From positions 1-55,394 of IMG/VR virus record IMGVR_UViG_3300033486_000002: a stretch of 55,394 bases of DNA; one strand, 5' to 3'. The notes under the pieces were generated by a model that searched no databases, had not been told where the DNA came from, and worked only from the letters and a program-made list of their open reading frames with translations. The translations under genes and the position numbers were made by a program. The stretch's first letter is position 1. The number at the start of each line of letters is the position of its first letter. The DNA is from a virus. Taxonomy: Duplodnaviria; Caudoviricetes. Below, piece by piece: positions 6,878 through 55,394 of this stretch.

Positions 6878-7174
6878 GTGCAATTCTACCAAATGGGAAT
6901 CGAGGAGATAACGGGCGTTGCCAACGACGCCAGGCAACTCGTCATCGGATGTTTGTTGAACCAGGGCGTAATCTCGCCAGAGGCTGCCGAATGGGCGGGG
7001 CGCCATGTCGGGGTTATTTGTTTTCGACCCGGCTTCTGGGGCAGGCTGTGGGACAAACTGGTGGGCATCAAGAAGGACGAGGACGGGTTCAGGTTGAGAG
7101 TGATGACCGAGATTCCGTGGGCACAACACACGGCAGTCGCCAAGGACACGGGAGAACCGCCGTCGGATGCCTGA
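6878..7174 (+). CDS. Hypothetical protein, 98 aa
   Basis: Fills the gap, overlaps the terL start; AAGGA RBS. Confidence 0.55.
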   Translation: MQFYQMGIEEITGVANDARQLVIGCLLNQGVISPEAAEWAGRHVGVICFRPGFWGRLWDKLVGIKKDEDGFRLRVMTEIPWAQHTAVAKDTGEPPSDA

Positions 7175-9496: not shown

Positions 9497-11440
9497 GTGC
9501 CCGAGCCCGTGAAGTGGGGGCCACGCCGGGAACAGGAGTTCGTGGAGTGGCTCTGCACGGACTTCACCAACGCCCTCGGCGCACGTTCCTCGCTCGAAAC
9601 CGCATGGTCCGAATGGCTGGACGACTACCGAGCCCCGGAATCCACCGAACTCAAACACTTCCCGTTCGAGGGCGCCTCGAACCGCACCGTGCCCGTGACG
9701 GCGATCAATGTGGACCCGCTGGTTGCACGGTTCATGACCACGTTCCACGCGCCACCGAACCTGTGGACCCTTCAGGCGTTGAACGAGCGGTGGGTCGATA
9801 TCGCCAAGCCGCTACAGGACTATCTCCAGTACCTCGATTCCCACGTCCTGCGGATGTGGGATGTGGACTACCGCGCGTGCCTCGAACTCATCAAGCTCGG
9901 CACCGCCATCTACAAGCACGGCTGGCTGTTCGAGCGGCGCCCGTCATGGGTCTACGGTCCCGACGGGCGACTGGTGCGCGGCACCAAGGTCGTCTCCCGC
10001 CCGTTCGTTGATCACGTCAAACTCCCCGACTTCGTTATCCCGCCCGCGTACTACGCCATCCAGCCCGACGACCAGGGCGGGGCGCCGTGGGTCGGGGAAC
10101 GCCACCAACTCAGGCTTGATCAGTTCCTTGCTCGCGCGAAGGGGCAGGACCCGTTCCTGCCGAACTACGACGCGGCGGCGGTGGAGAAGGTCAAGAAGTT
10201 CTACGAGACCAAACGCGACACCGTGCAGGCGAAGGTCGATACACTGGAGGACTACGCCCCCGTTCGGCACGAGAAGATCGACCTGTACGAAGTCCACGCG
10301 CGGTTCGATTGCTCCGGCACCGGGAACGTGGATGACATCGTCGCCATTGTCCACGTCGATAGCCGCACGCTCCTACGGGCGACGCTAAACTACTACGCGC
10401 ACGGCGAGCGGCCCTACGAGGTGGCGCGGTACTTCCGCTCGGACGGGTTCTACGGCATCGGCGTCTGCGAACAGAGCGAGATGTTCCAAGGCGAGATAAG
10501 CGACCTGAGCAACTTCCATCACGACAACGTGATGCTCAGGAACAGCCTGACGCTCGGCATCAAGCAGGGAGCGAACTTCCTGCCCGGCGAGCCCATCTAT
10601 CCCGGCAAGGCGTTCGTCCTCGACAACCCGCAGACCGATATCCGGGAACTCAAGTGGGGTGAGGCGAGCCAGACCACGCCGCAGTTGCTCCAGTTGTATC
10701 AGGCGATGGGCGAGCGGCGCACGGGACTCTCCGATATCCAGTTCGGCTCCATCCAGCAACTCCCCAGCCGCACACCCGCGACGACGATGATGTCGCTGTT
10801 GCAGGAGGGCAACCGCCGGTTCGACCTCTCGCTCAAGGACATGAGGACCGACTGCCTTGCGCGTATCGGCCTGCGCACGTTGCAGAACCTCCAGCAGTTC
10901 GCGGCCAACCCCGCGCAGAACCCCGACGGCCAACGGTTCCTGGCGCTCGCCATCCAGACGCTCGGGAGCCCCGAGGGCGAGGCGGTGGCGTCGGTACTCA
11001 ACATGCCGCTGGAGGACGTGGGCAGCGGCATCGGTGTCAGCCTCACCGCGACGAGCGGGATGGTGAACAAGGAGATAGAGAAGCAGTCCTTCCTCGCGCT
11101 GGTGCAACTACAGGTGCAGTTGGGCCAGCAGTTCATCCAACTCGCGCAGATAGCCGCCAACCCGCAAGTCGTGCAGATGATGCCCGCGCTGGCGCAAGTG
11201 GCGACCCAGGTGGCGCAAGGATTCACCGAACTCCAACGTCGGCTACTGGAGCAGTATGACATCCGCAACCCTGAAGAGATTCTGGTTGACGCTTCGGTCC
11301 TGCAATCCGCTGCGCAAACCATCGCCGCAGGCAACCTCATTGCCCCTGGGGCTTACGGGGGAGCAGGTGCAGGCCCTCCGGGCGCTGACGCTGGCGCCGG
11401 GATGGGCGGTCTACCTACTGGCTTTGGAGCGGCTGGCTGA
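9497..11440 (+). CDS. Portal protein (podovirus-type)
   Basis: 647 aa after terL; PFEGASN, FYGIGV, ERRTG...TAT-like motifs; Q-rich C-terminal barrel; AGGAGGT RBS. Confidence 0.88.
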   Translation: MPEPVKWGPRREQEFVEWLCTDFTNALGARSSLETAWSEWLDDYRAPESTELKHFPFEGASNRTVPVTAINVDPLVARFMTTFHAPPNLWTLQALNERWVDIAKPLQDYLQYLDSHVLRMWDVDYRACLELIKLGTAIYKHGWLFERRPSWVYGPDGRLVRGTKVVSRPFVDHVKLPDFVIPPAYYAIQPDDQGGAPWVGERHQLRLDQFLARAKGQDPFLPNYDAAAVEKVKKFYETKRDTVQAKVDTLEDYAPVRHEKIDLYEVHARFDCSGTGNVDDIVAIVHVDSRTLLRATLNYYAHGERPYEVARYFRSDGFYGIGVCEQSEMFQGEISDLSNFHHDNVMLRNSLTLGIKQGANFLPGEPIYPGKAFVLDNPQTDIRELKWGEASQTTPQLLQLYQAMGERRTGLSDIQFGSIQQLPSRTPATTMMSLLQEGNRRFDLSLKDMRTDCLARIGLRTLQNLQQFAANPAQNPDGQRFLALAIQTLGSPEGEAVASVLNMPLEDVGSGIGVSLTATSGMVNKEIEKQSFLALVQLQVQLGQQFIQLAQIAANPQVVQMMPALAQVATQVAQGFTELQRRLLEQYDIRNPEEILVDASVLQSAAQTIAAGNLIAPGAYGGAGAGPPGADAGAGMGGLPTGFGAAG

Positions 11441-13502: not shown

Positions 13503-14405
13503 ATGACGATTACCAGGGCGCAGTTCCAGGAACTGTTGGAGCCCAAACTCCGCAACATCTGGAACGACGGCCTCAAGACGTGGGAGCTTCTCTACCCGCG
13601 TTTCATGAACATCGGAAGCTCGAAGAAGGCGCAGGAAACCGATTTCCAGATGACCGGGCTCGGCGACGTTGCGACCATCTCCGAGGGCAACGATGTGATG
13701 TACGGCGACCCCATCAAGGGGTCCACGAAGGTCTACACGCACGCCACGACGGGTCTCGGCTACAAGATCACCGACGAAATGATCCGTCACGAACTGTACG
13801 GGCAGATGGCGAAGATGGAACGGTCTCTCATGCGGTCGATCATCCACAAGCAAGAGGTCGATGCGCACTCCGTTCTGAACAACGCCTTCTCCACCTCGTA
13901 CGTCGGCTTCAGTTCCGGGGAGTCGCTGTGCAGCACCTCGCACGCGCGGCTTGACGGCGGCACGGCGCAGGCCAACCGGCCCTCGACGGACGCCGACCTC
14001 GGGGTCACCTCACTCCAGAACGCGCTGATCCAGTTCCGGCTCTGGAAGGACGAGCGCGGCCATCCGGTCGTCGCCATCCCGCGCCTACTCATCATCTACC
14101 CGAACGACATCATGACCGCTCGGGAGCTTCTGGGCAGCGCGCAGAAGCCGGGTACGGCGAACAACGACGTGAACGCGATCCGCGAGGAGGGCATCACCTA
14201 CATGGTGACGCCGTACCTGACGGACACGGACTCGTGGTTCCTGATCGGCGGGGAGCACGACCTGAACTACATCTGGGACCTCCGTCCTGAACTGACGATG
14301 GACACGGACTTCGATTCCAAGGTGGTCAAGCGGATGGCGCGGCAGGCGTACTCCTACGGCTTCGGCGCGTGGTACAACGTGTACGGCACCAGCGGCGCCG
14401 GGTAA
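13503..14405 (+). CDS. Major capsid protein (Mu gpT-like, HK97 fold)
   Basis: MTITRAQFQELLEPKL start, ISEG, GLGYKITDEMI, LNNAF, GESLCSTSH, PYLTDTDSWFL; strong RBS AAAGGAG. Confidence 0.88.
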   Translation: MTITRAQFQELLEPKLRNIWNDGLKTWELLYPRFMNIGSSKKAQETDFQMTGLGDVATISEGNDVMYGDPIKGSTKVYTHATTGLGYKITDEMIRHELYGQMAKMERSLMRSIIHKQEVDAHSVLNNAFSTSYVGFSSGESLCSTSHARLDGGTAQANRPSTDADLGVTSLQNALIQFRLWKDERGHPVVAIPRLLIIYPNDIMTARELLGSAQKPGTANNDVNAIREEGITYMVTPYLTDTDSWFLIGGEHDLNYIWDLRPELTMDTDFDSKVVKRMARQAYSYGFGAWYNVYGTSGAG

Positions 14406-14463: not shown

Positions 14464-16611
14464 ATGACGGTGAACACCGAAGCACTAGACGATGGCAAGT
14501 TCGTGACGATGTCGTCCCTCAGCATCGTCGCTTCTCGTGCCACCGTCCAGACACAGGACCTTGTCGTGACGGGGAACATCACCGCCGCTTCGGGGTCCGA
14601 CCTCTCCATTTCCGAAGTGGACCTCAACAGCGGACTCGCGGTGGACCCCTCGCTCGGCTTCTCGTCCGAGAAGTCGCTGGGTCTCTACCGCAGCGGCACC
14701 AGCACCATCGCGATGAGTTACGGCCAGTTCCGCGTGGACGACGGCCTCGCGGTCCTGCCGGGACTCGCCATCGAGTCCGAACAGTCCTTGGGCCTCTACC
14801 GCTCCGGCGCAAGCCGACTGGCGCTGGCCTATGGCTCGCTCGACCTCCCGGATGGCACGGGCATCCGACCCTCGTTCTGCGAGCGGTCGGAGATTTCTCT
14901 CGGTCTCTACCGCAGCGGGACCAGCCTGCTCGCGTTGACTTACGGCTCGCTGGACCTCCCCGACGGCACGGCGATCCGGCCCTCGTTCTGCGAGCGGTCG
15001 GAGATTTCCCTCGGGCTCTACCGCTCGGGCGCGTCCACCTTGGCGATGAGTTACGGCCAGTTCCGTGTGGATGATGGGTCCGCGATCCTGCCGGGTCTCT
15101 GCGTCGAGTCCGAGCAGTCGCTCGGCCTCTATCGGTCCGGCACGTCCACTCTCGCCATGTCGTATGGGCAGTTCAGGGTGGATGACGGCACGGCGGTCCT
15201 GCCGAGCCTCGGGTTCGAGTCCGAGACCTCGCTGGGCCTCTACCGTTCGACCACCTCGACCCTCGCGGTCAGTTACGGCACGGTGAGCCTCGCGGCAGTC
15301 AGCGACTTCGTCGTCGGTGATGGTGGCGCGGCGCATCCCTACATCGCGCCCACCAGCGACCCGAGGATGGGCTTCTACCGCTCTGCGGCCAGCGTGACCA
15401 AGCTCTCCTGTGGCACGTTCGACCTCACGGCGGCCAACAGCGCCACGCTTCCTGACGGCGCGGCGACCAACCCCTCGTTCGGGTTCGCGTCCGACCCGCG
15501 CGTCGGTCTGTACCGGAGCGCGGCCTCGACGGCGAAGTTGACCGGCGGGGTACTGGACCTCACCGCCGCTACTGCGCCGGTTCTCGTGCCCGACGGTGGC
15601 GCGACCGCTCCATACGTTGCGCCCTCCAGCGACCCGAGGGTAGGCTGGTATCGGTCGGCCGCCAGCACTACGAAGTTGACCGGCGGCAACCTCGACCTCA
15701 CGGGTGCGACACAGGCATGGGTGCCGGATGGCACGGCGATTCTGCCGCAGCCCGCGTACTCGTCCGAGAAGTCCCTCGGGCTCTATCGCTCCGGGACATC
15801 CTGCCTCGCCATGAGTTACGGGCAGTTCCGGGTCGATGACGGCTCGGCGGTACTCCCGTCGCTCTGTTTCGAGTCGGAAAACAGCCTCGGACTGTACCGC
15901 TCTGGCAACTCCGCTGTTGCCATGAGTTACGGGCAGTTCCGGGTCGATGACGGTTCGGCGGTGCTCCCGTCGCTGTGCTTCGAGTCGGAGAACAGTCTCG
16001 GCTTCTACCGCTCGGCCAACTCCACGGTCGCCATGAGCTACGGCTCGTTCATCGGGTCGAACATCTCGACTTCGGTGATGTGGGTGACCCAGGCGTTCAA
16101 TGTGTCCGGTGTGACGCAGTACCACGCCGACTACATCGCCTGCGCCGACGGCAGCGCGGTCTCTCCGCCCTATCGGTTCGCGTCCGAGGCTTCGCTCGGG
16201 TTCTACCGTTCGGCGGCGAGCAACATCATCCAGTCCTACGGCACCTTCAGCGCCGTCAAGCTGGTGGGCACCAGCGAGGTTTCCGCTGCGGCCATCACCT
16301 CCTCGGGCGCACTCCAGTTGCGCGACGGCACCACGCTCCTACCGGGCTTCGGGTTCTACTCCGAGGCGTCGCTCGGGTTCTACCGGAAGGGCACGGGGCA
16401 GATTTCGCTCGCGCAGTCGGACTGCACGATCTGGGGCAACTTCGCCTCCATCCGCACGCTGGCGGCGTCCAGCAGCACGGCGGTCATCACGGAGCAGGGC
16501 GGCATCACGTTCTCGGTTCTTTCGGCTACGGTGAACGGCGCGGAAATCGCGTTCCGTTCCGGTAACACGGTCTACCACTTCTACTCGGGCAAGTCCAACG
16601 AGCAGGTGTAG
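14464..16611 (+). CDS. Repeat-rich fibre protein (head-fibre candidate), 14 repeats
   Basis: Fourteen DG.A..P...SE.SLG(L/F)YRS units, mostly 37 aa (111-bp DNA period), three longer SDPR variants; Ser-rich. Confidence 0.75.
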   Translation: MTVNTEALDDGKFVTMSSLSIVASRATVQTQDLVVTGNITAASGSDLSISEVDLNSGLAVDPSLGFSSEKSLGLYRSGTSTIAMSYGQFRVDDGLAVLPGLAIESEQSLGLYRSGASRLALAYGSLDLPDGTGIRPSFCERSEISLGLYRSGTSLLALTYGSLDLPDGTAIRPSFCERSEISLGLYRSGASTLAMSYGQFRVDDGSAILPGLCVESEQSLGLYRSGTSTLAMSYGQFRVDDGTAVLPSLGFESETSLGLYRSTTSTLAVSYGTVSLAAVSDFVVGDGGAAHPYIAPTSDPRMGFYRSAASVTKLSCGTFDLTAANSATLPDGAATNPSFGFASDPRVGLYRSAASTAKLTGGVLDLTAATAPVLVPDGGATAPYVAPSSDPRVGWYRSAASTTKLTGGNLDLTGATQAWVPDGTAILPQPAYSSEKSLGLYRSGTSCLAMSYGQFRVDDGSAVLPSLCFESENSLGLYRSGNSAVAMSYGQFRVDDGSAVLPSLCFESENSLGFYRSANSTVAMSYGSFIGSNISTSVMWVTQAFNVSGVTQYHADYIACADGSAVSPPYRFASEASLGFYRSAASNIIQSYGTFSAVKLVGTSEVSAAAITSSGALQLRDGTTLLPGFGFYSEASLGFYRKGTGQISLAQSDCTIWGNFASIRTLAASSSTAVITEQGGITFSVLSATVNGAEIAFRSGNTVYHFYSGKSNEQV

Positions 16612-16951: not shown

Positions 16952-17587
16952 ATGCCCCTTCTTACTCTCCAGACCTTGATGTCGGAGGCCACCGCGCTCG
17001 TGGGGGGCCGCTTGGACATGACGGCTTCCCAGGTCTCCCTCTACGTCAACATGGCGCAGTTGGAGGTCGCACGGGCGCTACCGCACGGGGAGATGGAGGA
17101 GACGGTTTACCTCTCCGTCACGACATCGATTGCGACGACGAGCGCCCTTCCGCCTGATTTTGACGAACCCATGTCCATCTCACGCCTGAGCGCGTTCGAT
17201 ACGTTCAGCCACATGAACCTGACGCGGGTGAGCATCGGAGAGGTGGACGACGCCAGCGATTCGGCCGGTACGGGCACCGGCTCGCCGACACGGTACGCGC
17301 TCCACGAGCAGGACATCTGGCTCTACCCTATGCCCTCCAGCGCGCTGTCGCTCAGGTTGCGCTACCGCCGGGTGCCGACCGACATGACCGCCCTCACGGC
17401 GATGCCGAGTCTGCACACGAGGTATCATCCCGCCATCCTCTACAAGACGGCGGAGAACCTCGCCATGCGGGCGGTGGACCCCCAGTTGGCGGCGTACTAC
17501 CGGAACACGTACATCAGTTTCATGCAGGCGACGCCGAGTACGCAGGAGGTCCGGGGGCGCTCGGAGCGCCAGAACACGGAACGCTAG
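16952..17587 (+). CDS. Putative head-tail adaptor, copy 1
   Basis: LP.DF, GSPTRY, IWLYPMP, LRYRR, YHPAIL motifs typical of podovirus adaptors. Confidence 0.7.
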   Translation: MPLLTLQTLMSEATALVGGRLDMTASQVSLYVNMAQLEVARALPHGEMEETVYLSVTTSIATTSALPPDFDEPMSISRLSAFDTFSHMNLTRVSIGEVDDASDSAGTGTGSPTRYALHEQDIWLYPMPSSALSLRLRYRRVPTDMTALTAMPSLHTRYHPAILYKTAENLAMRAVDPQLAAYYRNTYISFMQATPSTQEVRGRSERQNTER

Positions 17588-18229
17588 ATGACGTGGCAAC
17601 TGCAAGACCTTCTCTCTGAGGCGACGACCATCGCTGGTACGCCACCGGGACTACCCACGTCCCGCGTGTCGCAACTGGCGAATCAGGCCATCCGCGGCAT
17701 CGCTGCGCGGTTGCCGCACCCCGAACTGGAGGAGGTGGCGACGGGTTCCACGGTCACCTCCTCCAACGAGGCCACACTTCCCTCGGACTGCGAAGCCATC
17801 CTCTGCCTCTCGTTCGATACCGACGTGGCGGGTGTCGGCGGGCGTGTCATCCGGCAAGCGGCACCGTGGGAACTGGACGCCGTGAGCGACGGGACAGAGC
17901 AGGGTATCCCGCGCATGTACATCTCGTGGCAGACGTGGCTGGAGTTCTACCCCTCGCCCGACAGCGCGTACAGCCTGCTCCTGCGATACCGCAAGCGCGT
18001 GAGCGACATCACCAGCCTCACCGCGCGGGCGAGCCTCGACACGCGGTACGATCAGGCGGTACTACTCAAGACGGTGGAGTACCTGCACCTGAGGAAGGGC
18101 GAATACGACAAGGTGGCGTTGGCGCGTGAGATGTACGAACGGGAGTTGAAGCAGATACCGAACTGGTACGCCGTGCGCCAGCAGAACCGCACCGGGATGG
18201 GACTCCGCTACCAGAGCGAGGAGGACTGA
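17588..18229 (+). CDS. Putative head-tail adaptor, paralogous copy 2
   Basis: LPSDC, GIPRMY, LEFYPSPD, LRYRK, LDTRYDQAVLLK align by eye with the preceding ORF. Confidence 0.7.
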   Translation: MTWQLQDLLSEATTIAGTPPGLPTSRVSQLANQAIRGIAARLPHPELEEVATGSTVTSSNEATLPSDCEAILCLSFDTDVAGVGGRVIRQAAPWELDAVSDGTEQGIPRMYISWQTWLEFYPSPDSAYSLLLRYRKRVSDITSLTARASLDTRYDQAVLLKTVEYLHLRKGEYDKVALAREMYERELKQIPNWYAVRQQNRTGMGLRYQSEED

Positions 18230-18646: not shown

Positions 18647-20377
18647 GTGGCACCATCTCGGCACGTCTACTGTACGCCGTCCACCGCCCACGTCGTGTTG
18701 AACCGACTATCGGCGCCGAAGACGGTAACGATGACCCTGTATGCAACCGGCATCGGGCCTGGAGTAGAGGCGTTGAACAGGGCTCAGGTCTCCGGGGCCG
18801 TAGACAACGTCACGCTTACCAGCACCCCCGCAGACGGCGCAGAGATAAACATGGGTTTCGGACCCTATAATGGCCTTGTGGGCGTGGACCCGGAGCCGAT
18901 GATTACGCTTTCGGCCACACTCACGGTGGACGATCCGGGGGAGGAGGTCGGCGAGGGCATGTTCCTCGTCTGGCCCTTTGGCCCGATATACGTTCGTGGC
19001 GCGAGTGAAGACCAACTCATCTACGATACGTTTGTTGACGCCGACGGGACGTTGTTGGATGACCACACTCCCGATACTCAACCAGTGGGTGGTGTGGCGG
19101 GCTGGATGGGGTCCGCGTGCAACAACAATGGGTCCGTAGACAGTGCCTACGGGTCGGCGTTCGTCATTGGGGGCAACAGCGGCAACCGCTACGCGGGACG
19201 GCTCTACAGCGGGCTCAATGACGACTACTGTGTCTATGCGGACATCCGCCGAGAGGGTAGCGGGGTCGGGGACCGGGAACTCGGCATTAGTATCCGCAAC
19301 TCGCAGGTGACGGGGGTGGTGGATACCGCCGTTGACACGCTGCGGTTTTACGAGGAGTACAACAGCGCCACCACCGCCAACCTGACGTGGTCACAGGTGT
19401 CGAACCTACTCTCGGGCGGCGGCGACGGCTCGACACTAACGTCGCAGGTGGGGTTCACGTCGGTCGCGTGGGCGCAATGGGGAATCAAGCGCCTACTGAT
19501 GCACGTCAGCGGGGCCACGGTGCGCCTCTACAGCGGCGACAGCGCGGGTGCGGGAAACTATACGCTCCACAAGACGTTCAGCCTCACGACGGCGTGGAAC
19601 GACGCCAGTCACCAGTATTGCGGCCTCACGTACACGCACTTGGATCAAGGGGCGGGATTCGCGCTGTTCGGGTCCAGCCAGATAAGCCTCGGCATCTCTC
19701 CCTCGGGCCAGAGCGCGGTCTGTGTGACGGGGTACTCGGACAGTACTGGCACGGTGACCGGCGTCGGTAGCGTCTTCCATATCCCGCTTGGGTTCCCGGT
19801 CTCCGACCTTACCAGCACCACGTCCTATGTGGACGGGACCGGATGGCTGGAGGTGTCGATGGTCACCACCACCAGTCCAACGGACGTAACGATGGTCTGC
19901 AACGCTGCGAGCGCTACGACGGGCGTGCAGCGGGCGGTGGTGACGTTTGACTCCCCGGACACGGATAATGTGGCACAGGATATGCTCGTCAGTTTTCTCG
20001 TCACGACCGGAGTGAACAACGGGACGGCGGAGATCGTCGGTGCCCCCGCGAGCCTACTCAAGAGTAGTATGATCTCGGTCGCCGCAACGGGCTACGAGGT
20101 CACGGGGTCCGAGGCGACGGTCCTACGTTACGCCGCCATTGACGCGGCGAGCGGCGAGATGGGGGCCACGCTGGCTGATGTCACACTGGCGAAAGGGCAC
20201 GTCTGGGGAGTGGGCGGAACACGGTGCGCGCTCGCGGGAGCCCGGACAATGCTACTGCTGAATGGATGGGGCAAGCCCGATGCGGCGGGTGACTCCGACT
20301 GGACTGAGGGCGCTGACCCCGATGCGACGACGTGGACGAGCGAGTGGCGGCCCCGCGCCAAACTGCCGACACCGTGA
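18647..20377 (+). CDS. Beta-rich virion/receptor-binding-like protein
   Basis: 576 aa, S/T/G-rich; DTFVDADGTLLDDHTPD lectin-like segment; structural context. Confidence 0.6.
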   Translation: MAPSRHVYCTPSTAHVVLNRLSAPKTVTMTLYATGIGPGVEALNRAQVSGAVDNVTLTSTPADGAEINMGFGPYNGLVGVDPEPMITLSATLTVDDPGEEVGEGMFLVWPFGPIYVRGASEDQLIYDTFVDADGTLLDDHTPDTQPVGGVAGWMGSACNNNGSVDSAYGSAFVIGGNSGNRYAGRLYSGLNDDYCVYADIRREGSGVGDRELGISIRNSQVTGVVDTAVDTLRFYEEYNSATTANLTWSQVSNLLSGGGDGSTLTSQVGFTSVAWAQWGIKRLLMHVSGATVRLYSGDSAGAGNYTLHKTFSLTTAWNDASHQYCGLTYTHLDQGAGFALFGSSQISLGISPSGQSAVCVTGYSDSTGTVTGVGSVFHIPLGFPVSDLTSTTSYVDGTGWLEVSMVTTTSPTDVTMVCNAASATTGVQRAVVTFDSPDTDNVAQDMLVSFLVTTGVNNGTAEIVGAPASLLKSSMISVAATGYEVTGSEATVLRYAAIDAASGEMGATLADVTLAKGHVWGVGGTRCALAGARTMLLLNGWGKPDAAGDSDWTEGADPDATTWTSEWRPRAKLPTP

Positions 20378-22260
20378 AGTTGCCCGTAGTCGCCGCCTGT
20401 CTGGTGCGGAACGAGGCCGACCGCTACTGGGCAAAAGTACTCAACCACCTGAGTAAACAGGTGGATGGCATCGTGGTAGTGGATGATCACTCTACGGACG
20501 CCACGCCCGCGATTACGGACGCCTGCCCCGCCGTAATCAAGCACATTCGGCTAACGGACGAGCCGATGTGGGGAAAAGAGGCTCCGGTACGGCAACTACT
20601 GTGGGAGGCGGCGAGTGAACACGGACGCTGGGTGCTGGTCAACGACGCGGACCAACTGCTGGTCGGTGACGTGCGCGCCCTCTGCCGGACCACGGAACAC
20701 AACTCCTGGGCCTTTGTCCTGTACGACCTCTGGGGCGACCGGAACCATTATCGTGACGATGCGTTCTGGTGCGCCCATCATCATCACCGGCCCTGGTTGT
20801 TCCGTCCTGATCGAGTGCCTGACGGCTGGCGAGCAGAATGGGCGGGCCGTGGCGTGCATTGCGGTCACGCCCCGAGCAACTTCCCGCTCTCGTGCGGCAT
20901 TGCGCCGTCTGAGAGTTTTCATTGGCTCCATCTGGGCTACGTTACTGCGGCTGACCGCGAAGCGAAACTAACCCGTTACCGTTCCGTAGGAGGCCAGTTG
21001 ACCGAGCAAGAGCGCGCCCACGCCGAGAGCATCGCCGACGTGAGTCCCGTGGTGCGCATCCTTCCGTCCGAGAAACCCATCCGTGTCCTCGTCGGCACAT
21101 CGGTACGCAAACGGCTGGACGTGCTGCGTCCGCACCTCGACACATTGGCGTGGCAGGACCTCCCGCCCAAGGTGCAGGTGGACTACTGTTTCGTACCGGA
21201 TTTCGAGGACCAGACCGATCCCGCGTGCCTTTACCTCCAGCAATGGACGGCAGAGCACAAGGGCGTTCTCCTACAGGGGATGCCGCCGACACCGAACGAC
21301 TTCCGCGATAGTGGCGACGTGACGCACCAATGGACCGCGACGGCGATGACCCGCGTGGGACAGAACAAGAACCGCATCCTGCGCCACGGGGTCCAGAACC
21401 ATTACGACTACATCTGGCTCGTGGATAGCGACCTTCTGCTGGACCAGTACGTGCTGCGGAGCCTGCTCGACTGCCGTCAGGCCATCGTGAGCGCCGTCTA
21501 CTGGACGCGGTGGAACAAGCCGGGGATGCACTCCGCGCCGCAGGTGTGGCTCAAGCACGTCTACGAACCGTTCCAGTCCGGGGGCACGGCGCGTGGCCTT
21601 ACCGAACGTGAGTTCCGCCAGAAACTCGTGTCCCGGAATCTGACACAGGTCTGGGGTCTCGGGGCCTGCACCCTGATTCGGCGCGACGTAGTGGAGAAGG
21701 GTGTCGGGTTCCATCGGTTCCCTGGCCTGCCGGGTGGCGGGCTCTGGGACGGGGAGGACCGCCACTTCTGTACTTGGGCGGAGCACCTACACGTCCGCAT
21801 GGCGGCAGACCCCTGGCCCGACATCTTCCACGTCTATCACGACGACGACACCGCCCGTATCGGGGAGATGAAACAGCGATTCAGTGAGGGACGTGGCTAC
21901 CACCCGGAACTCGGGGACCTCGTGAGCCTACGCCTGAGCCCGCTGGAGGAACCCGGTGGCCTGAGCGAGATGGTGCGGTGCCGCCTCGGGGACGGGACGC
22001 TGATGCCCGACATCGAGGGTGCGGTGACGAAGATGGCGCGTGGCGACGTGCGGATTGTCCGCGTGCAGTTCCCCGCGCACTACCCGCTGGACGGCCTGCG
22101 CAACCGCGCGCGGCTGATTGAGGTCGTGCTTTGCGACCACAAGCAGAACGGCTGGCCCCCTGTGCTGGAGGATGAGATGTACGTAACGCCCACGGGCGCG
22201 CACGTTGATGCAACGGCGCTGGCGCCGGAACAGGAAGCTCTGATGGCGGAGGACGCATGA
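20374..22260 (+). CDS. Double family-2 glycosyltransferase with C-terminal trigger-factor-type FKBP-like domain
   Basis: GT domain 1: VRNEA, VVDDHSTDAT, NDAD, HLGY. GT domain 2: WLVDSD, GACTLIRRDV, GEDRHFC. C-terminal LGDGTLMPDIEGAV...VQFPAHY. Confidence 0.85.
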   Translation: MKLPVVAACLVRNEADRYWAKVLNHLSKQVDGIVVVDDHSTDATPAITDACPAVIKHIRLTDEPMWGKEAPVRQLLWEAASEHGRWVLVNDADQLLVGDVRALCRTTEHNSWAFVLYDLWGDRNHYRDDAFWCAHHHHRPWLFRPDRVPDGWRAEWAGRGVHCGHAPSNFPLSCGIAPSESFHWLHLGYVTAADREAKLTRYRSVGGQLTEQERAHAESIADVSPVVRILPSEKPIRVLVGTSVRKRLDVLRPHLDTLAWQDLPPKVQVDYCFVPDFEDQTDPACLYLQQWTAEHKGVLLQGMPPTPNDFRDSGDVTHQWTATAMTRVGQNKNRILRHGVQNHYDYIWLVDSDLLLDQYVLRSLLDCRQAIVSAVYWTRWNKPGMHSAPQVWLKHVYEPFQSGGTARGLTEREFRQKLVSRNLTQVWGLGACTLIRRDVVEKGVGFHRFPGLPGGGLWDGEDRHFCTWAEHLHVRMAADPWPDIFHVYHDDDTARIGEMKQRFSEGRGYHPELGDLVSLRLSPLEEPGGLSEMVRCRLGDGTLMPDIEGAVTKMARGDVRIVRVQFPAHYPLDGLRNRARLIEVVLCDHKQNGWPPVLEDEMYVTPTGAHVDATALAPEQEALMAEDA

Positions 22261-22481
22261 ACGAATGGCCGAAGTGGCGTGAGACGCCAGCGGGCGTCAG
22301 TAGTAACCGCTTTCTTGTGGTACAAACCAGCGACGGCACCGTGGCAATGTCGCCTAATATGGTGGCGAACTGGCTATACCAAGCCGACATTTGTTATGAC
22401 GACGCCCTGGTGGGACATGGAGCGATGGCGCAATACCTTGCGGACACCCGTGGACCCCATTGGTCAAGTAGCCTCACATGA
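22257..22481 (+). CDS. Small hypothetical protein, 74 aa
   Basis: ATGA-coupled on both sides. Confidence 0.5.
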   Translation: MNEWPKWRETPAGVSSNRFLVVQTSDGTVAMSPNMVANWLYQADICYDDALVGHGAMAQYLADTRGPHWSSSLT

Positions 22482-23329
22482 GCGAGCCCATCAAGATTCC
22501 TGCCGGTATGGCCTGTGTCACGACCTACGGAGAGATTCAGCACGAGACGGTGGCGGCGCTGCTGGAGTGCCGGTCGCACTCGGAGAAGCACGGCCTCACG
22601 TCGGTCGCGTGGGAGTTCGTGAGCGGGACGCTGGTGGACCGCGCGCGGAATCAGGCGGTCGCCAAGATGATGCAGCATCCCGGCAAACTGCAATGGCTGT
22701 GCTTCATCGACGGCGACTGTGTGTTCCCGCCCGATGCGCTGATGCGGCTACTGGCCTACGCATACCACGAGAACCCGGTGGCGGACATCGTGGGCGCCTA
22801 CAACCCCCTGAGAGGGGAACCCTACTTGCCGACCATCGACACGGGTACGGGAACGTGGGAGAACCACTACCCCGGCAGCGGGCCGCTGGAGGTGATGCGC
22901 ACGGGGTCCGCGTTCGTGGTGGTCAAGCGTCACGTATACGAGCGCGTGGAGGGGCCGTGGTACGGGACGCGGCATCCCTTGCGGCCAATCGACATCCTCG
23001 CGGAACTGGACAACTACGCGAACCAGAAGTTCGATGGCCGGAATCCCTTGGTGGCGACGCCGGAGTGGCAGAGCCTGCTGGAGTGCGCCCGCAGTGAGCC
23101 CAGCACCTACCGCCCGCCGGACCCCACGGCGTTCGTGGGTGAGGACAGTAACTTTTGCGATAAGGCGAGGTTCTACGAGAGGGCGAAAGGCCAAGGGTTC
23201 CGCATCTTCGTCCACACGGACATCGTGTGCGGGCACGTTGACAAGAGGATCGTCACTTGGCGGGACCACAAGGCGTCGATAGACAAGTCGGCGGAGCGGG
23301 TGAGACTCCTGTGCGGGGTGATGCGATGA
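22478..23329 (+). CDS. Family-2 (GT-A) glycosyltransferase
   Basis: VDRARN, FIDGD (DxD), TGSAFVVVKR, GEDSNFC, DIVCGH. Confidence 0.85.
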   Translation: MSEPIKIPAGMACVTTYGEIQHETVAALLECRSHSEKHGLTSVAWEFVSGTLVDRARNQAVAKMMQHPGKLQWLCFIDGDCVFPPDALMRLLAYAYHENPVADIVGAYNPLRGEPYLPTIDTGTGTWENHYPGSGPLEVMRTGSAFVVVKRHVYERVEGPWYGTRHPLRPIDILAELDNYANQKFDGRNPLVATPEWQSLLECARSEPSTYRPPDPTAFVGEDSNFCDKARFYERAKGQGFRIFVHTDIVCGHVDKRIVTWRDHKASIDKSAERVRLLCGVMR

Positions 23330-23730: not shown

Positions 23731-24315
23731 ATGCCGACCATCGGGTGGGACGAGAACGCGCCAGCGGACGCCGACGCCGCCTCCAGCGGTGACGACGCCA
23801 TCCGTAGCCTGAAGACCAACCTCTCCGGTGGTCTCGGGACCTCCATGTACTGGCCCGGCACGGCGGGGGGTTCCGCCGCCAGCGCGGGGGAGATGAAACT
23901 CGGGGCGGCGCGCACATTCTACGCCGCCGAGAGCGCGGTCAGCAAGGCGCAGGACGGCCAACTGATGTATACCAGCGACAAGAGCCGCCTCTGGTACGTC
24001 GGCACCACGGGGCCAGTGCTGGTGGGCGGGCAGTTCTGTGTCGCCAGCGCGGTCAACCCTGGCGCGGGCGCGCGGTGGCAACTCGACAGCGGCGTGACGT
24101 TTAGCGGGGGATGGGTGCCGTTCAACGTGACCTACGGTGTGGCGCCCAAGGTCACGGTATCGCTGGACACCACGCTGTCCAAGGGCGCGCTGAGTTGCGT
24201 CACGGGTGTCGGCACAACGGGCTTCTACTGTTCCGCATACAACGCGGAGAACGTGCTCTACGCCGCATCCGCGTACAGTGTGCGCTGGATGTCGCTCGGC
24301 ACCGTGGCGATCTAG
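23731..24315 (+). CDS. Short tail-fibre-like protein with possible H-type-lectin-like C-terminus, copy 1
   Basis: N-terminal WDENAP...GDDAIRSLK; C-terminal FNVTYGVAPKVTVS...TTGF...WMSLG. Confidence 0.65.
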   Translation: MPTIGWDENAPADADAASSGDDAIRSLKTNLSGGLGTSMYWPGTAGGSAASAGEMKLGAARTFYAAESAVSKAQDGQLMYTSDKSRLWYVGTTGPVLVGGQFCVASAVNPGAGARWQLDSGVTFSGGWVPFNVTYGVAPKVTVSLDTTLSKGALSCVTGVGTTGFYCSAYNAENVLYAASAYSVRWMSLGTVAI

Positions 24316-24318
24316 GCC

Positions 24319-24927
24319 ATGCCCATCACCTGGGACGAATCGCTTCCCGGCGACGGCGACTACCTGAGTCAAGGCGCGGACTCCATCCGCACGCTCAAAC
24401 GGGAGTTCGCCGAGGGCATCGTGCCCGCGATGTACTGGCCGGGGAGTGGTGGCGGGTCGGCGGCCAGTGCGGGCGAGATGAAGCTCGGCACCTTCAAGAC
24501 GCACTACGAGGTGCGGAGCGGTCTTAGTGTCGGGGCGCGGAACGGGTCGCTGTTGTTCGCGTCCGACACGTCCGAGTGCTACATGATACAGACCAGCGTG
24601 GACAGTCTGCCCGTGCTCCACGGCTACGCAATCGAGCATCCGCGCAGCGCGGTGAGTACCGTCTACTGGGTCGTGTCCAGCGGGACGGGGTCCACGGCGG
24701 AGGACAAGTCCTTCGGCGTGACCTACAAGGGCCGCCCGCTGATTACCACCAGTTGGGTCACCACTCTGACGACACCGGAGTATCCAATCGCCATCACGGT
24801 CGGCGCGGTGACGACGACGCAGTTCACGCCCTCGGGCTGGAGCATCATCGACGTGCCAGCCGTGGACTGGGTGCAGGAGATGGCGCAGTTGTTCCACTGG
24901 ATTTCGATTGGGACGGTGGACGTATGA
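24319..24927 (+). CDS. Short tail-fibre-like protein, paralogous copy 2
   Basis: Shares MYWPG..GGSAASAGEMKLG and W(M/I)S(L/I)GTV with copy 1. Confidence 0.65.
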   Translation: MPITWDESLPGDGDYLSQGADSIRTLKREFAEGIVPAMYWPGSGGGSAASAGEMKLGTFKTHYEVRSGLSVGARNGSLLFASDTSECYMIQTSVDSLPVLHGYAIEHPRSAVSTVYWVVSSGTGSTAEDKSFGVTYKGRPLITTSWVTTLTTPEYPIAITVGAVTTTQFTPSGWSIIDVPAVDWVQEMAQLFHWISIGTVDV

Positions 24928-26726
24928 GCCCCAAGACGCCGTTCGGCACACCCATTGAGATACCGCCTCCGGCCAAGAAGGAACGGGTTGCGCCAGGGAA
25001 GCGCGGTTTCGGACTGGAGATTGACCCGTCACAGGCACCGCCCAAGAAGCAATCGGCCACTCAGACGAAGCGTTCATTCGGGCTGGAGGTGGACCCTGCG
25101 CAGGCTCCGCCCAAGCGTGAGCGGCCCGCGCCATCGTTCGCGCCGAAGCCTATCCAGCCCATTGATGTCGCGCCGCCGTCGTCCACCCTGATGACGTTCA
25201 AGACGGTGGCTCTGGGCCTGATGGAGAACGTCCCCGCGCCCAACCTCCCGGCGGGCGCCACGCCAGAGGCGCAGAACGTGTTGGCGCGCGAGGGCGTGCT
25301 GGAGCCGCGCTACCGGCTGGCGAAAGTGGGTAGCGGGTCCTCGCTCTGTGACGACGTGCTGGCGATGGGCGAGATGGTGAACACCGCCGGTACGCGATAT
25401 CCTTTTGCTATCAGTGCCGCGACGATGTCGTACTACTCGGGTTCCGTGTGGACCTTCGGGTCCTACTTTGCCAACGGCGTGAACGACCCGCCCTCGGCGG
25501 CGGACACCGTCTACATCGACGCGGTGCAGATTTACGAGCCGGTCTCCGACGACAACGCCATCGCGTGGGTCAACGGCACGGACCAGTGTTTCGTCGCCAG
25601 CGGGTACACGAAGGGGTTCTCCAGCCTGACGAACGCGCCCATCGCCAAGACCATCGCGGTGTTCGACAACCGCGTGGTCTGGGGCAACATCACCAGCGGG
25701 GGTACGACCTACCCGCAACGCATCCAGTACAGCGAGAAATGGAACCCGTCGATCACCACGGCCCCGACCGGGGGGTTCGAGGACGAGACGGACGCGCGCG
25801 GCGCGCTGCTCAGGCTCATCTCCGACGGCGACCGGGTGCTGGCGTACTTCGAGCACGAACTCTGGTACGGCTATGCGGTGGACTACCCGTTCAACCTGAC
25901 GTTCCTACCGCTGGACCGGAGCACCGGCTGTTCGGGCGCGTGGGCCGTGTGCCAGACGCCGAAGGGTGTGTTCCACCTCGGGTCCGACTACATGCCCTAC
26001 ATCACCCCGCGCGGAGGACTGCCGCAGGCCGTGGGGCAGGCGGTATGGAAGACGTTGCGCGAGGACATCGACTACCCGACGCGCGCCCACGCGGAGTACA
26101 ACCCCCAGACGGGCGAGGTGGTGCTCTGCTACGCGCATCAGGGCGGCACCGGGCGGCCCAAGCGGGCGCTGACGTTCGACATCAATACAGGCGTATGGAC
26201 GCCGCAGACGTTCGATGTCGCCATCACCCGGCTCGGGGTGGGCGACTACACGTCCAGTTCGGTGACGTGGGGCGGGCTGGTGGGGACGTGGGCGCAACAG
26301 ACGAAGACATGGAGCCAGTTGGGCGGCACCGCCAGCGCGCGGGTACTCTACGCGGGCACATCCACCGGCACCATCGCGGCGTTCACCTCGGACGCCACGA
26401 ACGACCTCGGGACCGCCGTGGAGACCAAGTATCTCGCGGTGGTGCCGAACGAGGACCCGGCGCGGAAGATGTACGTGCGCGAGGTGCGGCTGGACTACCG
26501 CGCGGCCAGCGCATCGAGCCTCACGCTCAAGATGTCCGGCGACTTCGGTACGACGTGGCAGTCGGAGGTCGGCGTGGCGTTGCCGACCGCGCCCACGAGC
26601 GCGCAGACGACCGTGTGGGTCGGTGCGGAGGCGATCTATCCCACCATCCTGTTCCAGCACGACCAGGGGCACCGCTTCGCCATCCAGCGGGCCATCGCGG
26701 TCGTGACACCGACGGGCCGTGGCTGA
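24924..26726 (+). CDS. Tail nozzle/stabilisation protein (P22 gp10-like beta-propeller)
   Basis: ATG 24924; WVNGTD, FDNRVVWGN, RIQYS, beta-rich repeats, TW...TW...TW segment; position before the fibre. Confidence 0.7.
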   Translation: MSPKTPFGTPIEIPPPAKKERVAPGKRGFGLEIDPSQAPPKKQSATQTKRSFGLEVDPAQAPPKRERPAPSFAPKPIQPIDVAPPSSTLMTFKTVALGLMENVPAPNLPAGATPEAQNVLAREGVLEPRYRLAKVGSGSSLCDDVLAMGEMVNTAGTRYPFAISAATMSYYSGSVWTFGSYFANGVNDPPSAADTVYIDAVQIYEPVSDDNAIAWVNGTDQCFVASGYTKGFSSLTNAPIAKTIAVFDNRVVWGNITSGGTTYPQRIQYSEKWNPSITTAPTGGFEDETDARGALLRLISDGDRVLAYFEHELWYGYAVDYPFNLTFLPLDRSTGCSGAWAVCQTPKGVFHLGSDYMPYITPRGGLPQAVGQAVWKTLREDIDYPTRAHAEYNPQTGEVVLCYAHQGGTGRPKRALTFDINTGVWTPQTFDVAITRLGVGDYTSSSVTWGGLVGTWAQQTKTWSQLGGTASARVLYAGTSTGTIAAFTSDATNDLGTAVETKYLAVVPNEDPARKMYVREVRLDYRAASASSLTLKMSGDFGTTWQSEVGVALPTAPTSAQTTVWVGAEAIYPTILFQHDQGHRFAIQRAIAVVTPTGRG

Positions 26727-28839
26727 CCGTAGGCCGTCCGTGCGCGTGGGGCTCCCGCCTTCGACCCTGACGGGCGAGGCGTGGAAATGGGCGCGCAAGG
26801 TCAGCGAGGCGCTGAACGGCATCCCGAAGTTCTCCTACACCAGCTACGCCGACCCGAACAGTAACGTGAGCGGCGGCGCTGGCGACGTGCTCATCAATCT
26901 GGTGAGCAACGCCAGCGTGAGCCGTATGTGGATAAAGCAGACCGACACGGCGGCTACCACGGGTTGGGTAGAGTCCACGACGAGCGGTGCGGGCACCAGC
27001 GCGGTGAATAGCGTATCGGGCACGGCGAACCGGATAACGGTGAGTCCCACGACGGGCGCGTGCGTGGTGGACATCTCGTCTGGCTATGCAGGCCAAACGA
27101 GTATCACGACCCTCGGGACGATTGCGAGCGGGACGTGGCAGGGCACGAGCATCGCCACCGCGTACACGGTGGCGCAGGCAACGTCGGTGAACGGTACGGC
27201 CAATCGTATCACCGCGAGCGGTAGTTCGAGCGCCCCGGTACTGGATATCGCCTCGACGTACACGGGACAGGCGAGCATCAGCGTCGTGAGTAGCGTACAG
27301 GCGAGCATCACCACGGCGGCGAACCTCGTGGCCGTGGGCGCACTCGACTCGGGCAGCATCGTCAGCACGTTCGGCGCGATAGACATTGGGGCCGATGCGC
27401 TGACGGCGGGTTACGTCGTGTTGTCAAGCGACAATCCGGTACGGATGTCCGGTAGCGGGGCCGACGTGTATATGGCGCTCGCCTCGACGGCGGCAGGCGG
27501 GCGTCAGTACAACATCGCAACTGGCGCGACAGCGAGCGGCAATATCCCCGGTGCGGGATTCTACATCTACGACTTCACGGGAAGCGCGGTGCGTTTCGGC
27601 ATCACCGCTGCGGGTATCCCTATCCACTACGGCGCGGTGGACGGCGAGCATCTGCGGTTCGCGTACAACGCGGACGCTACCTACTACAACTACATCCACT
27701 CGACGTTCAACGGTGGGGCAGACGCCGACAACTACCTCGCCCTGTTCGTGGGTACGGCGGCGAAGGGTCACAACGAAGTCCTGCGCGTTCGGGGCGACAA
27801 GGCGACACTACTTGCGGGCGCGCTCACGCTCGGCGCTGTCGCGGGCACGGGCACGGGGGCGCTGTACTGCGGCGCGCTCACCGCGACGACGGGCCACTTC
27901 TCGGGCACGAACGCCTACAACGCGGCGACTCCGAATCTGCTCGTACACGATGACGCGAATCGCACGACGGGACTGTGGGGTAGCCACATCTGCCGGATGG
28001 ATGGGGACGTAGATGACCTCGGGGTAGGGATTAACTACCTCGGCTACAACGGTGGAACGACGCGCTTCCGCGACTTCGACGTGTTCAACGGAAAGAGCGT
28101 CAAGATTGTCGCCGTCACCGGGAGTACCGGCGCGCTGACCCTTGGCTCCGTGGCGGGCACGGGCACGGGGGCGCTGTACTGCGGTGCCCTCACCGCGACG
28201 ACGGGCCACTTCGACGGCCTGCTCACCGCTGACCTCGGGCTCACCGTCACCTCCGGACAAACCCTCACCGTCACCGGCTGCACCATCACCGGCCTCACAG
28301 CCGCCAGCGTCGGCGCGGGGACGTTCCCGGCAGGGGCGTTCACGTTCGGGGGCGACGTTACCATAAGCAAGTCGCTCACCAACGATGTTATTCGCTACAC
28401 GCTCAATGGCGGGGCGGGCTATATAGACTTTGGGCTGCTGGGGCCGTCGTACTCAACCTCCGGGGCTTTCGTTGCAGACTCTGCGGGGTTCTATACCTCG
28501 GGATTGTCGGGTGGAATCAACTTCTACACGGCCAACTCGGGCGACATCGTTTTCTGGTATGGTAGCGGAAACGGAACCGAGGGATTTCGTTTCAGCGGGA
28601 CCACGGGAGCAATTACCACGGGCCTCTCGTTGCTTGTAGGAACGTCTTTAACCGTGACGCAGGGGTTTGGATGCAACAGCAAGGCCGCACAGACAGCCTA
28701 CGCCAGCGGCGGCGCGGCACCGGCAGGCGGGACCGGCGCGACTGAGGGTGCTTACGATACGGCGGCACACCGTGACGCGCTCATAACGCTGGTCAACAAC
28801 ATTCGCGCGGCGCTCGTTGCCAACGGGATTATGTCCTGA
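26719..28839 (+). CDS. Tail fibre / receptor-binding protein
   Basis: 706 aa, G/T/A-rich; SITTLGTI.SGTWQGT motif; duplicated 27-aa hinge; helical C-terminal end. Confidence 0.75.
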   Translation: MADRRPSVRVGLPPSTLTGEAWKWARKVSEALNGIPKFSYTSYADPNSNVSGGAGDVLINLVSNASVSRMWIKQTDTAATTGWVESTTSGAGTSAVNSVSGTANRITVSPTTGACVVDISSGYAGQTSITTLGTIASGTWQGTSIATAYTVAQATSVNGTANRITASGSSSAPVLDIASTYTGQASISVVSSVQASITTAANLVAVGALDSGSIVSTFGAIDIGADALTAGYVVLSSDNPVRMSGSGADVYMALASTAAGGRQYNIATGATASGNIPGAGFYIYDFTGSAVRFGITAAGIPIHYGAVDGEHLRFAYNADATYYNYIHSTFNGGADADNYLALFVGTAAKGHNEVLRVRGDKATLLAGALTLGAVAGTGTGALYCGALTATTGHFSGTNAYNAATPNLLVHDDANRTTGLWGSHICRMDGDVDDLGVGINYLGYNGGTTRFRDFDVFNGKSVKIVAVTGSTGALTLGSVAGTGTGALYCGALTATTGHFDGLLTADLGLTVTSGQTLTVTGCTITGLTAASVGAGTFPAGAFTFGGDVTISKSLTNDVIRYTLNGGAGYIDFGLLGPSYSTSGAFVADSAGFYTSGLSGGINFYTANSGDIVFWYGSGNGTEGFRFSGTTGAITTGLSLLVGTSLTVTQGFGCNSKAAQTAYASGGAAPAGGTGATEGAYDTAAHRDALITLVNNIRAALVANGIMS

Positions 28840-30162: not shown

Positions 30163-30558
30163 GTGATCGTACAGTTCGCCGCTGACGTGCCGCCGCCTTC
30201 GCGGCGCCTGATTCGCCAGACGGCGAATCGTCTCTCGCGCAAATGGGGGTTCACGGACTACGAACTCCACGTTGACCTCAAGACCGACGACAAGACAATG
30301 GCTGAGATAGAGCGCCATGTCTCCAGCCGTATCCTGAATCTCCATCTCTCCGCCAACCGCCTTGACCCCGAGATGCTGCGCCGCGACCTGTTCCACGAGT
30401 TCTGGCACGTCGCCACTTGGCGGCTCGCGGACTGGCTGGAGACCGTGCTGGCGCTGCTGAGTAAGCGCAGGCGCAGGCAGATAGAATCGGACATCCGCCG
30501 CGAGTTCGAGGCGGCGCACGAGGACGCAGTCCAACTCTGGCTCAAGGAACTGACGTGA
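30163..30558 (+). CDS. HExxH zinc-metalloprotease-like protein
   Basis: LFHEFWHV motif and a distal HE. Confidence 0.6.
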   Translation: MIVQFAADVPPPSRRLIRQTANRLSRKWGFTDYELHVDLKTDDKTMAEIERHVSSRILNLHLSANRLDPEMLRRDLFHEFWHVATWRLADWLETVLALLSKRRRRQIESDIRREFEAAHEDAVQLWLKELT

Positions 30559-55118: not shown

Positions 55119-55394
55119 TCAGCCCTCCCGTGCTTTGGAAATCGCGGCGTCGAGCAGTTCAAGCGCCGCCTTGCCGCCAGAAGGGCGCACGCAGTTGGCA
55201 AACGCATCGTCAGCGACCGCCTTACTCAGCCAACGCAGAGACTCCTTGGCCGCAGTCAAGAGCGCCGCGCGATCCGCCTCGGCACGGGCCGCCCGCTTCT
55301 CCATCTCAGCGAGGGCACGCACAACGGCTTCCCATGACGAGATGATGCCCATACCGAGTTCGCGCGCTGCGCCAAGCGCCCTCATCTCCTCGTC
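55119..55394 (-). CDS. 3' part of the junction-spanning hypothetical protein
   Basis: Continues from ATG at 223 via the 127-bp overlap. Confidence 0.65.
   Translation of the reverse strand, partial: DEEMRALGAARELGMGIISSWEAVVRALAEMEKRAARAEADRAALLTAAKESLRWLSKAVADDAFANCVRPSGGKAALELLDAAISKAREG
55268..55394. repeat. Terminal direct repeat, right copy (127 bp)
   Basis: Identical to 1-127. Confidence 0.95.

Follow-up and report, generated by a model that had tools for sequence, protein, structure and literature searches.

Glycosyltransferases (GTs) that carry their own recruiting module are exemplified by O-GlcNAc transferase and other GTs bearing tetratricopeptide repeats (TPRs), in which a catalytic GT is joined to a peptide-binding domain that recruits the substrate. 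In UGGT and the collagen-modifying machinery of the endoplasmic reticulum (ER), GTs act on non-native chains and peptidyl-prolyl isomerases (PPIases) control folding. Glycosylation of phage virions has been recognised only recently, and it is not understood how the enzymes concerned choose the proteins that they modify in the bacterial cytoplasm. Phage-encoded GTs of the mycobacteriophages Che8 and Rita are reported to glycosylate capsid proteins (Freeman et al. 2023, cited in PMC11256854). The present study concerns a plus-strand gene at 20374-22260 of the virus record IMGVR_UViG_3300033486_000002 (Duplodnaviria; Caudoviricetes), analysed over its whole length of 55,394 nucleotides, hereafter the window. 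Its product (P0001, 628 residues plus stop) joins two GT domains to a homologue of the PPIase head of trigger factor (TF, gene tig), the ribosome-bound chaperone, and the gene and its family are referred to here as GT-TF. We tentatively propose that a phage lineage fused the client-binding head of a host TF to a GT and so obtained a chaperone-coupled enzyme that would glycosylate newly made virion proteins before they fold, a reading to which we give somewhat less than an even chance.

Set beside the described systems, the phage enzyme resembles the TPR-bearing protein GTs in having a GT joined to a polypeptide-binding module, and distant homologues even carry TPRs at their C-terminus (L012 and L013, see below). 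It differs from them in the nature of the module, a chaperone/PPIase domain whose counterpart in TF is directed at hydrophobic, proline-containing stretches of unfolded chain and not at folded partners or defined motifs. With UGGT and the collagen machinery it would share, if the proposal holds, the tying of glycosylation to the recognition of not-yet-folded protein, and with COLGALT1 it appears to share an organisation in two GT-A domains; the sensor domains are, however, unrelated (thioredoxin-like in UGGT), and the phage setting is cytoplasmic and viral. The mycobacteriophage systems likewise involve phage-encoded GTs; the available text of PMC11256854 places their genes near the right genome end and mentions no chaperone-type domain for them, and among 50,697 deposited phage records we found no similarity beyond the GT2 fold. 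GTs with a substrate-recruiting module and glycosylation of phage virions are already known as kinds, and a phage GT with a TF head, as predicted here, would be a new variant of them. That a chaperone head serves as the module suggests that the unfolded state is what is recognised. A GT furnished with a piece of the cell's first-line chaperone would give a concrete answer to the question of acceptor choice, and it would be a rare example of a TF domain reused outside the chaperone.

The C-terminal domain and its relation to trigger factor

By sequence comparison, the C-terminal ~115 residues of P0001 are homologous to the TF PPIase domain, which is of the FKBP type. The initial annotation had already recognised a TF-type FKBP domain in a peptide starting GDLVSLRL, and both the assignment and the placement proved right, G514 being encoded at 21913 and K590 ending at 22143. 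When the last 136 residues were compared by phmmer with 1.84 billion representative proteins, 59 matches were obtained at E<=0.001. The large majority (55/59) were colinear proteins of the same GT family, composed of GT domain 2 and the TF-like domain, so that the domain was found in no other architecture. Two matches were bona fide TFs (library-wide E-values of 2.9e-4 for P0170 and 6.2e-4 for P0174). P0174 has the architecture Trigger_N, FKBP_C and Trigger_C; P0170, named trigger factor by its source, consists of FKBP_C and Trigger_C. The remaining matches were one FKBP-bearing protein resembling a flagellar hook protein and one SpaA-repeat protein (P0143). BLASTP aligned P0001 with P0174 at 41% identity over 73 residues and with P0170 over 123 residues, extending beyond the PPIase domain. 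The best NCBIfam model for P0001 was TIGR00115 (tig), with E 3.1e-4 for the C-terminus alone at model positions 169-230. An Atlas search with residues 505-630 of a 72% identical homologue (P0007) placed the clusters FKBP_C and 'FKBP-like_TF', the latter bearing the name of the newer Pfam model PF28537, nearest, at a score of 0.82 that lies under 0.9 and is taken as a lead only.

The match grows stronger when profiles replace single sequences. A3, a profile of 23 C-terminal sequences of the GT-TF family, ranked seven TFs first among all PDB sequences (E 8.1e-5 to 5.7e-3), other FKBPs appearing only from E 0.33. In hhalign, A3 reached 97.2% against P0174 and 98.2% against an alignment of 23 TFs (E 6.1e-14, 114 columns), compared with only 58% against a generic FKBP-bearing protein. 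The SpaA-repeat protein P0143, which at E 3.2e-10 had scored better than the TFs in the phmmer search, behaved unlike them: a single 40-residue word was matched seven times, the similarity was gone once the family profile was used (hhalign 0.08%), and P0143 was rejected on these grounds as a repeat-inflated chance match. Six-frame scans with A3 were made over whole genomes, 101 each of Bacillota, Actinomycetota and Pseudomonadota. In Bacillota, a single match was obtained in each of 80/101 genomes, the best having E 7.7e-15, and the open frames concerned measured 332-561 residues; in Actinomycetota 24/101 matched, one of these being the phage-like contig itself, with exactly one match in 23 of the 100 others. 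Both of the two matches checked by Pfam were TFs, in four further genomes the match coincided with the sole FKBP_C site, and in an Actinomycetes metagenome-assembled genome (MAG; G001) the profile picked out the TF and passed over two canonical FKBPs, which score 82 and 78 bits in Pfam.

The aligned span of ~114 columns runs from the helix that leads into the PPIase domain (residues ~148-249 in E. coli TF) through the entire domain to the LPxLDDEF-like segment after it. Neither Trigger_N nor Trigger_C was found by Pfam in P0001, and Trigger_N is absent from the whole phage genome, so that the protein, in contrast to TF, has neither the ribosome-binding N domain nor the C-terminal arm domain; moreover, its domain is phage-encoded and fused to an enzyme. 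For TIGR00115, whose cut-off is 180 bits, the score is 16-20 bits. P0001 is thus not a TF, only a piece of one, and contains what the alignments identify as a diverged TF-type PPIase domain.

Within the protein, GT domain 1 (GT2 family, GT-A; residues 1-215, 20374-21018) is followed by GT domain 2 (GT-A, Anp1-like or COLGALT1 GT1-like; residues 236-490, 21079-21843), by a poorly conserved linker (residues 491-512, 21844-21909) aligning with the helix that precedes the TF PPIase domain, by the TF-type, FKBP-like domain itself (residues 513-591, 21910-22146) and by a conserved tail (residues 592-628, 22147-22257) whose start, PPVLEDEM, aligns with the LPxLDDEF segment. Residue counts given below as n/33 refer to the aligned family members and those given as n/21 to the full-length members having both GT domains. 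In the tail, P596 (32/33), E601 (33/33) and D612 (32/33) are kept, and one homologue (L011) does without the tail, its open reading frame (ORF) ending right after the TF-like domain. The ORF of P0001 is open from 20332 and has further possible GTG starts at 20332 and 20344; the start was taken at 20374, where the GTG runs into the stop codon of the preceding gene as GTGA, in agreement with the homologues, which begin 2-8 residues ahead of the sequence VVAACL.

Cleft conservation, distribution and history of the fusion

Residue roles in the TF cleft are those given in PMC6166725, according to which the head binds proline-aromatic motifs in hydrophobic stretches by a proline-binding cleft of I195, P196, F217, P218, Y221 and H222. 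The backbone NH of position 195 is there the catalytic centre; I195L has a small effect, and mutation of His222 causes a moderate drop in activity. Residues were mapped in E. coli TF numbering through an ungapped match to 1W26, checked against the hhalign alignment of 23 TFs. Position 195 corresponds to M544 in P0001 and is L or M across the family (L in 21/33). P196 (P545) and P218 (P567) are each kept in 30/33, F217 (F566) is aromatic, F or Y, in 33/33, and Y221 (Y570) is Y or W in 21/33. As judged from this map, the proline cleft is mostly kept and the adjoining aromatic pocket has turned aliphatic. R535 is an invariant residue peculiar to the GT-TF family and further distinguishes the phage domain from TF. 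The initial annotation had described a shortened loop, which is borne out for P0001 and its four nearest relatives, where ~10 residues fewer stand between the first strand and VRCRLG, and does not apply to the rest of the family. From this loop it had been suggested that the domain may bind instead of isomerise, a point on which the residue map is mixed. Mean pairwise identity is 0.43 in the TF-like domain, compared with 0.48-0.51 in the GT domains and 0.28 in the linker. The alignment thus shows the TF-like domain to be under purifying selection and conserved about as well as the GT domains.

Among 7,998 candidates scored, 219 were members of the GT-TF family at E<=0.001. They fall into proteins of ~620-650 residues with both GT domains and shorter ones of ~415 residues having only GT domain 2 and the TF-like domain; in L004, L006-L009 and L011, GT domain 1 is a separate upstream gene. 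From the short forms and the split genes together, GT domain 2 emerges as the constant partner of the TF-like domain. For the history of the fusion, 115 loci were taken (80 from IMG/VR, 35 from bacterial genome collections), of which 108 had a match to GT domain 2 of at least 80% coverage and the 7 with shorter matches were dropped. A TF-like match was found by tblastn in 13 loci, to which L011 was added from its translation, giving with the window 15 domain-bearing rows. In a GT domain 2 tree of 106 rows, built after removal of the three longest branches (L069, L084 and L017), a branch with 100/99 support separated these 15 from all the rest, which fits a single capture. As far as these sequences reach, the TF-like domain is confined to one clade of ~50-kb phages and, within it, to the position behind this GT. 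Two carriers of nominally bacterial origin (L081 and L082) are short MAG contigs and are probably phage as well.

Outside this clade the GT core takes other forms. Cellular homologues, mostly of Bacillota, do not carry the TF-like domain, and the order of their two GT domains is inverted. Two phage contigs of 146 kb and 90 kb encode proteins of 826 and 845 residues (L012, 8697-11174; L013, 8633-11167) in which GT2, an Anp1-like GT and a further GT2 are followed by TPRs. On the chromosome of Neobacillus cucumis (L083, 5947-13388), a homologue of 531 residues, Anp1-like plus GT2, has as neighbours a GT2, a fusion of GT2 with TPRs and a coiled-coil protein of 1104 residues, a group that at a guess serves surface-protein glycosylation. 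The initial annotation had drawn an analogy to TPR domains that recruit substrates for protein GTs; the occurrence of TPRs at the end of the same GT pair and next to the Neobacillus homologue gives this analogy substance, and the functional reading built on it appears reasonable and is, at the level of sequence, partly supported. The fusion had also been taken as one without a characterised precedent. This agrees with our searches, in which no description of a GT joined to a TF domain was found in the literature and no fusion was present among the 50,697 deposited phage records; in these, one protein gave a weak match, confined to the GT part, and nothing matched at the DNA level.

A tree of the TF-like domain (103 columns) shows a long stem, 1.56 changes per column, between the phage domains and TFs. 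The phage clade is placed beside the metagenomic TF P0174, itself picked by similarity, and the tree does not single out a donor lineage. One row of the TF alignment (A4, row L120) is a wrong, opposite-strand ORF with 14% identity and a long branch; the result is independent of it.

Glycosyltransferase domains, proposed mechanism and alternatives

GT domain 1 exceeds the Pfam cut-offs for PF13704 (33.1 bits; cut-off 27.5) and PF00535 (32.7; 23.3), and its motifs D37 (21/21), D38 (20/21) and D91xD93 (21/21) are kept. Its closest solved sequences in a PDB profile search are the peptide- or protein-modifying GT2 enzymes ThuS-like 7msk, SunS and GmaR (E 4.8e-7 to 3.3e-6), all over ~95 N-terminal residues only; a SunS model matches also in NCBIfam (E 0.0054). 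This likeness lies far below the family cut-offs, and acceptor specificity is not transferable from these enzymes. GT domain 2 is probably a GT-A domain, on the evidence of its profiles and motifs. Its best Pfam model in P0001, PF13641, stays at 24.1 bits below the cut-off of 27; an Anp1 model matches 14/33 family members (best E 5.6e-6), and the nearest relative of the family profile among solved structures is the GT1 domain of human COLGALT1 (E 1.2e-9). D351xD353 and E461-D462-R463 are invariant (33/33). For the initial description as two GT2 domains, 'GT2 plus a second GT-A domain' is consequently the better wording. Metal and nucleotide motifs are kept in both domains, which distinguishes domain 2, with its DxD and EDR motifs, from the GT1 domain of COLGALT1, described as non-catalytic in PMC12003778. 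Taken together, the COLGALT1, SunS, ThuS-like and GmaR likenesses are suggestive of protein-modifying relatives and do not fix the acceptor.

The mechanism that we favour starts from a single event in which GT domain 2 would have taken up a contiguous piece of TF, reaching from the helix in front of the PPIase domain across the complete PPIase head into the residues that directly follow it. In TF, unfolded proteins are gripped at proline-containing stretches by a hydrophobic cleft of this head, and the head would most likely do the same job here without the ribosome anchor. An unfolded virion protein, such as a fibre, decoration or tail protein, would be held near the two GT active sites, sugars would be added before the acceptor folds or assembles, and a third GT encoded next door might then lengthen the glycan. 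The head may retain some prolyl isomerase activity, which the mechanism does not require. For the TF-like domain as such, the proposition that it is a client-holding module presenting unfolded virion proteins to the GT domains seems to us evenly balanced between right and wrong. This mechanism is favoured by the homology to TF, the confinement of the domain to this GT, its conservation, the synteny within the virion module, the kept GT motifs, the mostly kept cleft and the TPRs of the distant homologues. If the enzyme is indeed a chaperone-coupled GT, it would parallel, in a virus and in the cytoplasm, the glycosylation that is linked to folding in the eukaryotic ER, and it would be the first case of a TF domain employed outside the ribosome-bound chaperone. 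The domain might also prove practical as a portable handle by which unfolded substrates are glycosylated.

A number of observations weigh against this proposal. The likeness of domain 1 to SunS, ThuS and GmaR is limited to the nucleotide-binding half, domain 2 resembles a domain of COLGALT1 that is non-catalytic, and neither is proof of a protein acceptor; family searches of the neighbouring genes revealed no known family pointing to one. In Pfam, FKBP_C scores 17.0 bits (E 0.0076), under the threshold of 21.1, and is matched at E<=1 by 17/33 members (best 0.0024). The A3 scan was without a match in 21/101 Bacillota genomes and matched 0/101 Pseudomonadota genomes; the distribution of the likeness (80/101 in Bacillota, 24/101 in Actinomycetota, 0/101 in Pseudomonadota) hints at a Gram-positive-type donor or a host of that type for the phage group. 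Within the domain, His222 is replaced by P571 (Pro in 25/33), and positions that are aromatic in the TF pocket are now aliphatic, F168 being L521, F198 being I547 (L/I/V in 33/33) and F233 being I582 (I/L/M/V in 31/33); the loop that holds F177 in TF is absent, short or too changed to align in the GT-TF family. With the pocket so changed and His222 turned to Pro, client preference, or even binding, may differ from that of TF.

These substitutions bear equally on the idea that the TF-like domain is chiefly an active prolyl isomerase, a foldase for the proline-limited folding of fibre or tail proteins whose fusion to the GT couples two maturation steps. The largely kept proline cleft, a position 195 that is not Pro in 32/33, and the Pro-rich N-termini of the virion protein p599 and its homologues would suit such an enzyme; the loss of His222 and the replacement or absence of 4/7 aromatic-pocket residues speak against it, and we consider it unlikely. 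A structural role without client binding, be it docking on the procapsid, the tail or the third GT, an oligomer interface, or stabilisation of GT domain 2 in cis, would accommodate the long stem branch that separates the domain from TFs, family-specific invariant residues such as R535, the conserved tail without known role and the third GT as a constant neighbour. The hydrophobic cleft positions nevertheless remain hydrophobic family-wide, and distant homologues have peptide-binding TPRs at the C-terminal place, so that a purely structural domain appears distinctly unlikely to us.

Enzymes of the GT2 and Anp1-like kinds are mostly builders of polysaccharides. The acceptor might on that ground be no protein at all, but a host envelope glycan or a lipid-linked sugar, in a conversion of the GtrB type to which the TF-like domain would be unrelated. 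A PHROG hit to GtrB-like O-antigen conversion, weak at E 0.0054, and the cellular Bacillota homologues devoid of a TF-like domain point in the same direction. Against it stand the conserved position of the gene between structural genes in the virion module, the presence of peptide-binding modules (the TF head, and TPRs in L012 and L013) on the same GT core, and the report that mycobacteriophage virions are glycosylated by GTs of the phages themselves (Freeman et al. 2023, as cited in PMC11256854); a non-protein acceptor is improbable in our estimate. It is highly improbable, finally, that the TF similarity is a matter of chance or composition and that the C-terminus has some other fold. The sub-threshold FKBP_C score and the higher single-sequence rank of P0143 could be read that way, yet the P0143 match vanishes with the profile that strengthens the TF match, and the genome-scan matches, where checked, were TF genes only.

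Candidate acceptors and genome context

The window begins and ends with an exact direct repeat of 127 bases (1-127 and 55268-55394), consistent with a complete genome. Its structural block lies on the plus strand and comprises the large terminase (7167-8897), an SU10-type portal (9497-11440), the major capsid protein (13503-14405), a repeat-rich virion protein, two adaptor-like paralogues and more virion proteins, and the GT-TF ORF sits within this block. The position is retained in 12 related contigs (L001-L011 and L014), where the GT-TF gene is found downstream of capsid and adaptor genes and is directly followed by the third GT gene. In the window, that gene (P0002, 283 residues) occupies 22478-23329 on the plus strand and matches PF00535 with 24.7 bits and phrog_1574 with E 4e-11. 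A small ORF between the two GT genes (22257-22481), having no family match and no counterpart in related loci, is probably no gene. After the third GT, most contigs continue with small fibre-like paralogues and then a virion protein of 600 residues.

Several neighbours, all on the plus strand, come into consideration as acceptors. P0003 (18647-20377, 576 residues; S+T 20%, G+A 22%), immediately upstream and translationally coupled to the GT-TF gene, belongs to no family in Pfam, PHROGs, NCBIfam or PDB, and the slot that it occupies is hypervariable among related phages; we infer that it is a candidate acceptor. The same may be said of the repeat-rich virion protein (14464-16611, 715 residues, phrog_6005), which contains ~15 copies of a 37-residue (111-nt) repeat around SLGLYRSG, a repeat that recurs in L001, L002, L004 and L010, each time in the gene immediately preceding the GT. 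The virion structural protein p599 (24924-26726, phrog_3287) is a speculative client: its Pro-rich N-terminus of ~100 residues holds FGLE(I/V)DPxQAPPK repeats, and its homologues in related phages start with an FGxP(L/I) motif. Two tandem pairs of paralogues are conserved in related phages, one adaptor-like (16952-18229, 211 and 213 residues) and one small and fibre-like (23731-24927, 194 and 202 residues). The fibre-like proteins of this region and the Pro-rich N-terminus of p599 are obvious candidate acceptors, and none is singled out. PDB sequence searches with P0002, P0003, the 715-residue repeat protein, p599 and p706 gave no matches.

Searches over the window found no tRNA, and scans for promoters and terminators gave no signal above that of shuffled sequences. 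In a search of sequencing runs, the GT-TF gene was present in the probable source sample only and in no RNA run. A protein of 400 residues (30555-31757, plus strand) has a Methyltransf_24 domain at its C-terminus and could methylate a glycan or DNA; its homologue in L010 directly follows the third GT. An 84-nt direct repeat of 90% identity (27817-27900 and 28129-28212) lies inside a Gly/Ala/Thr-rich, fibre-like protein of 706 residues, and a large polyvalent protein of 1292 residues with an LPD38 domain is encoded at 40370-44248 on the plus strand. A 12-nt unit is repeated 18.8 times at 50387-50611, inside a minus-strand ORF (50282-51016, 244 residues), where it encodes 4-residue repeats of the AARDAAWD type.

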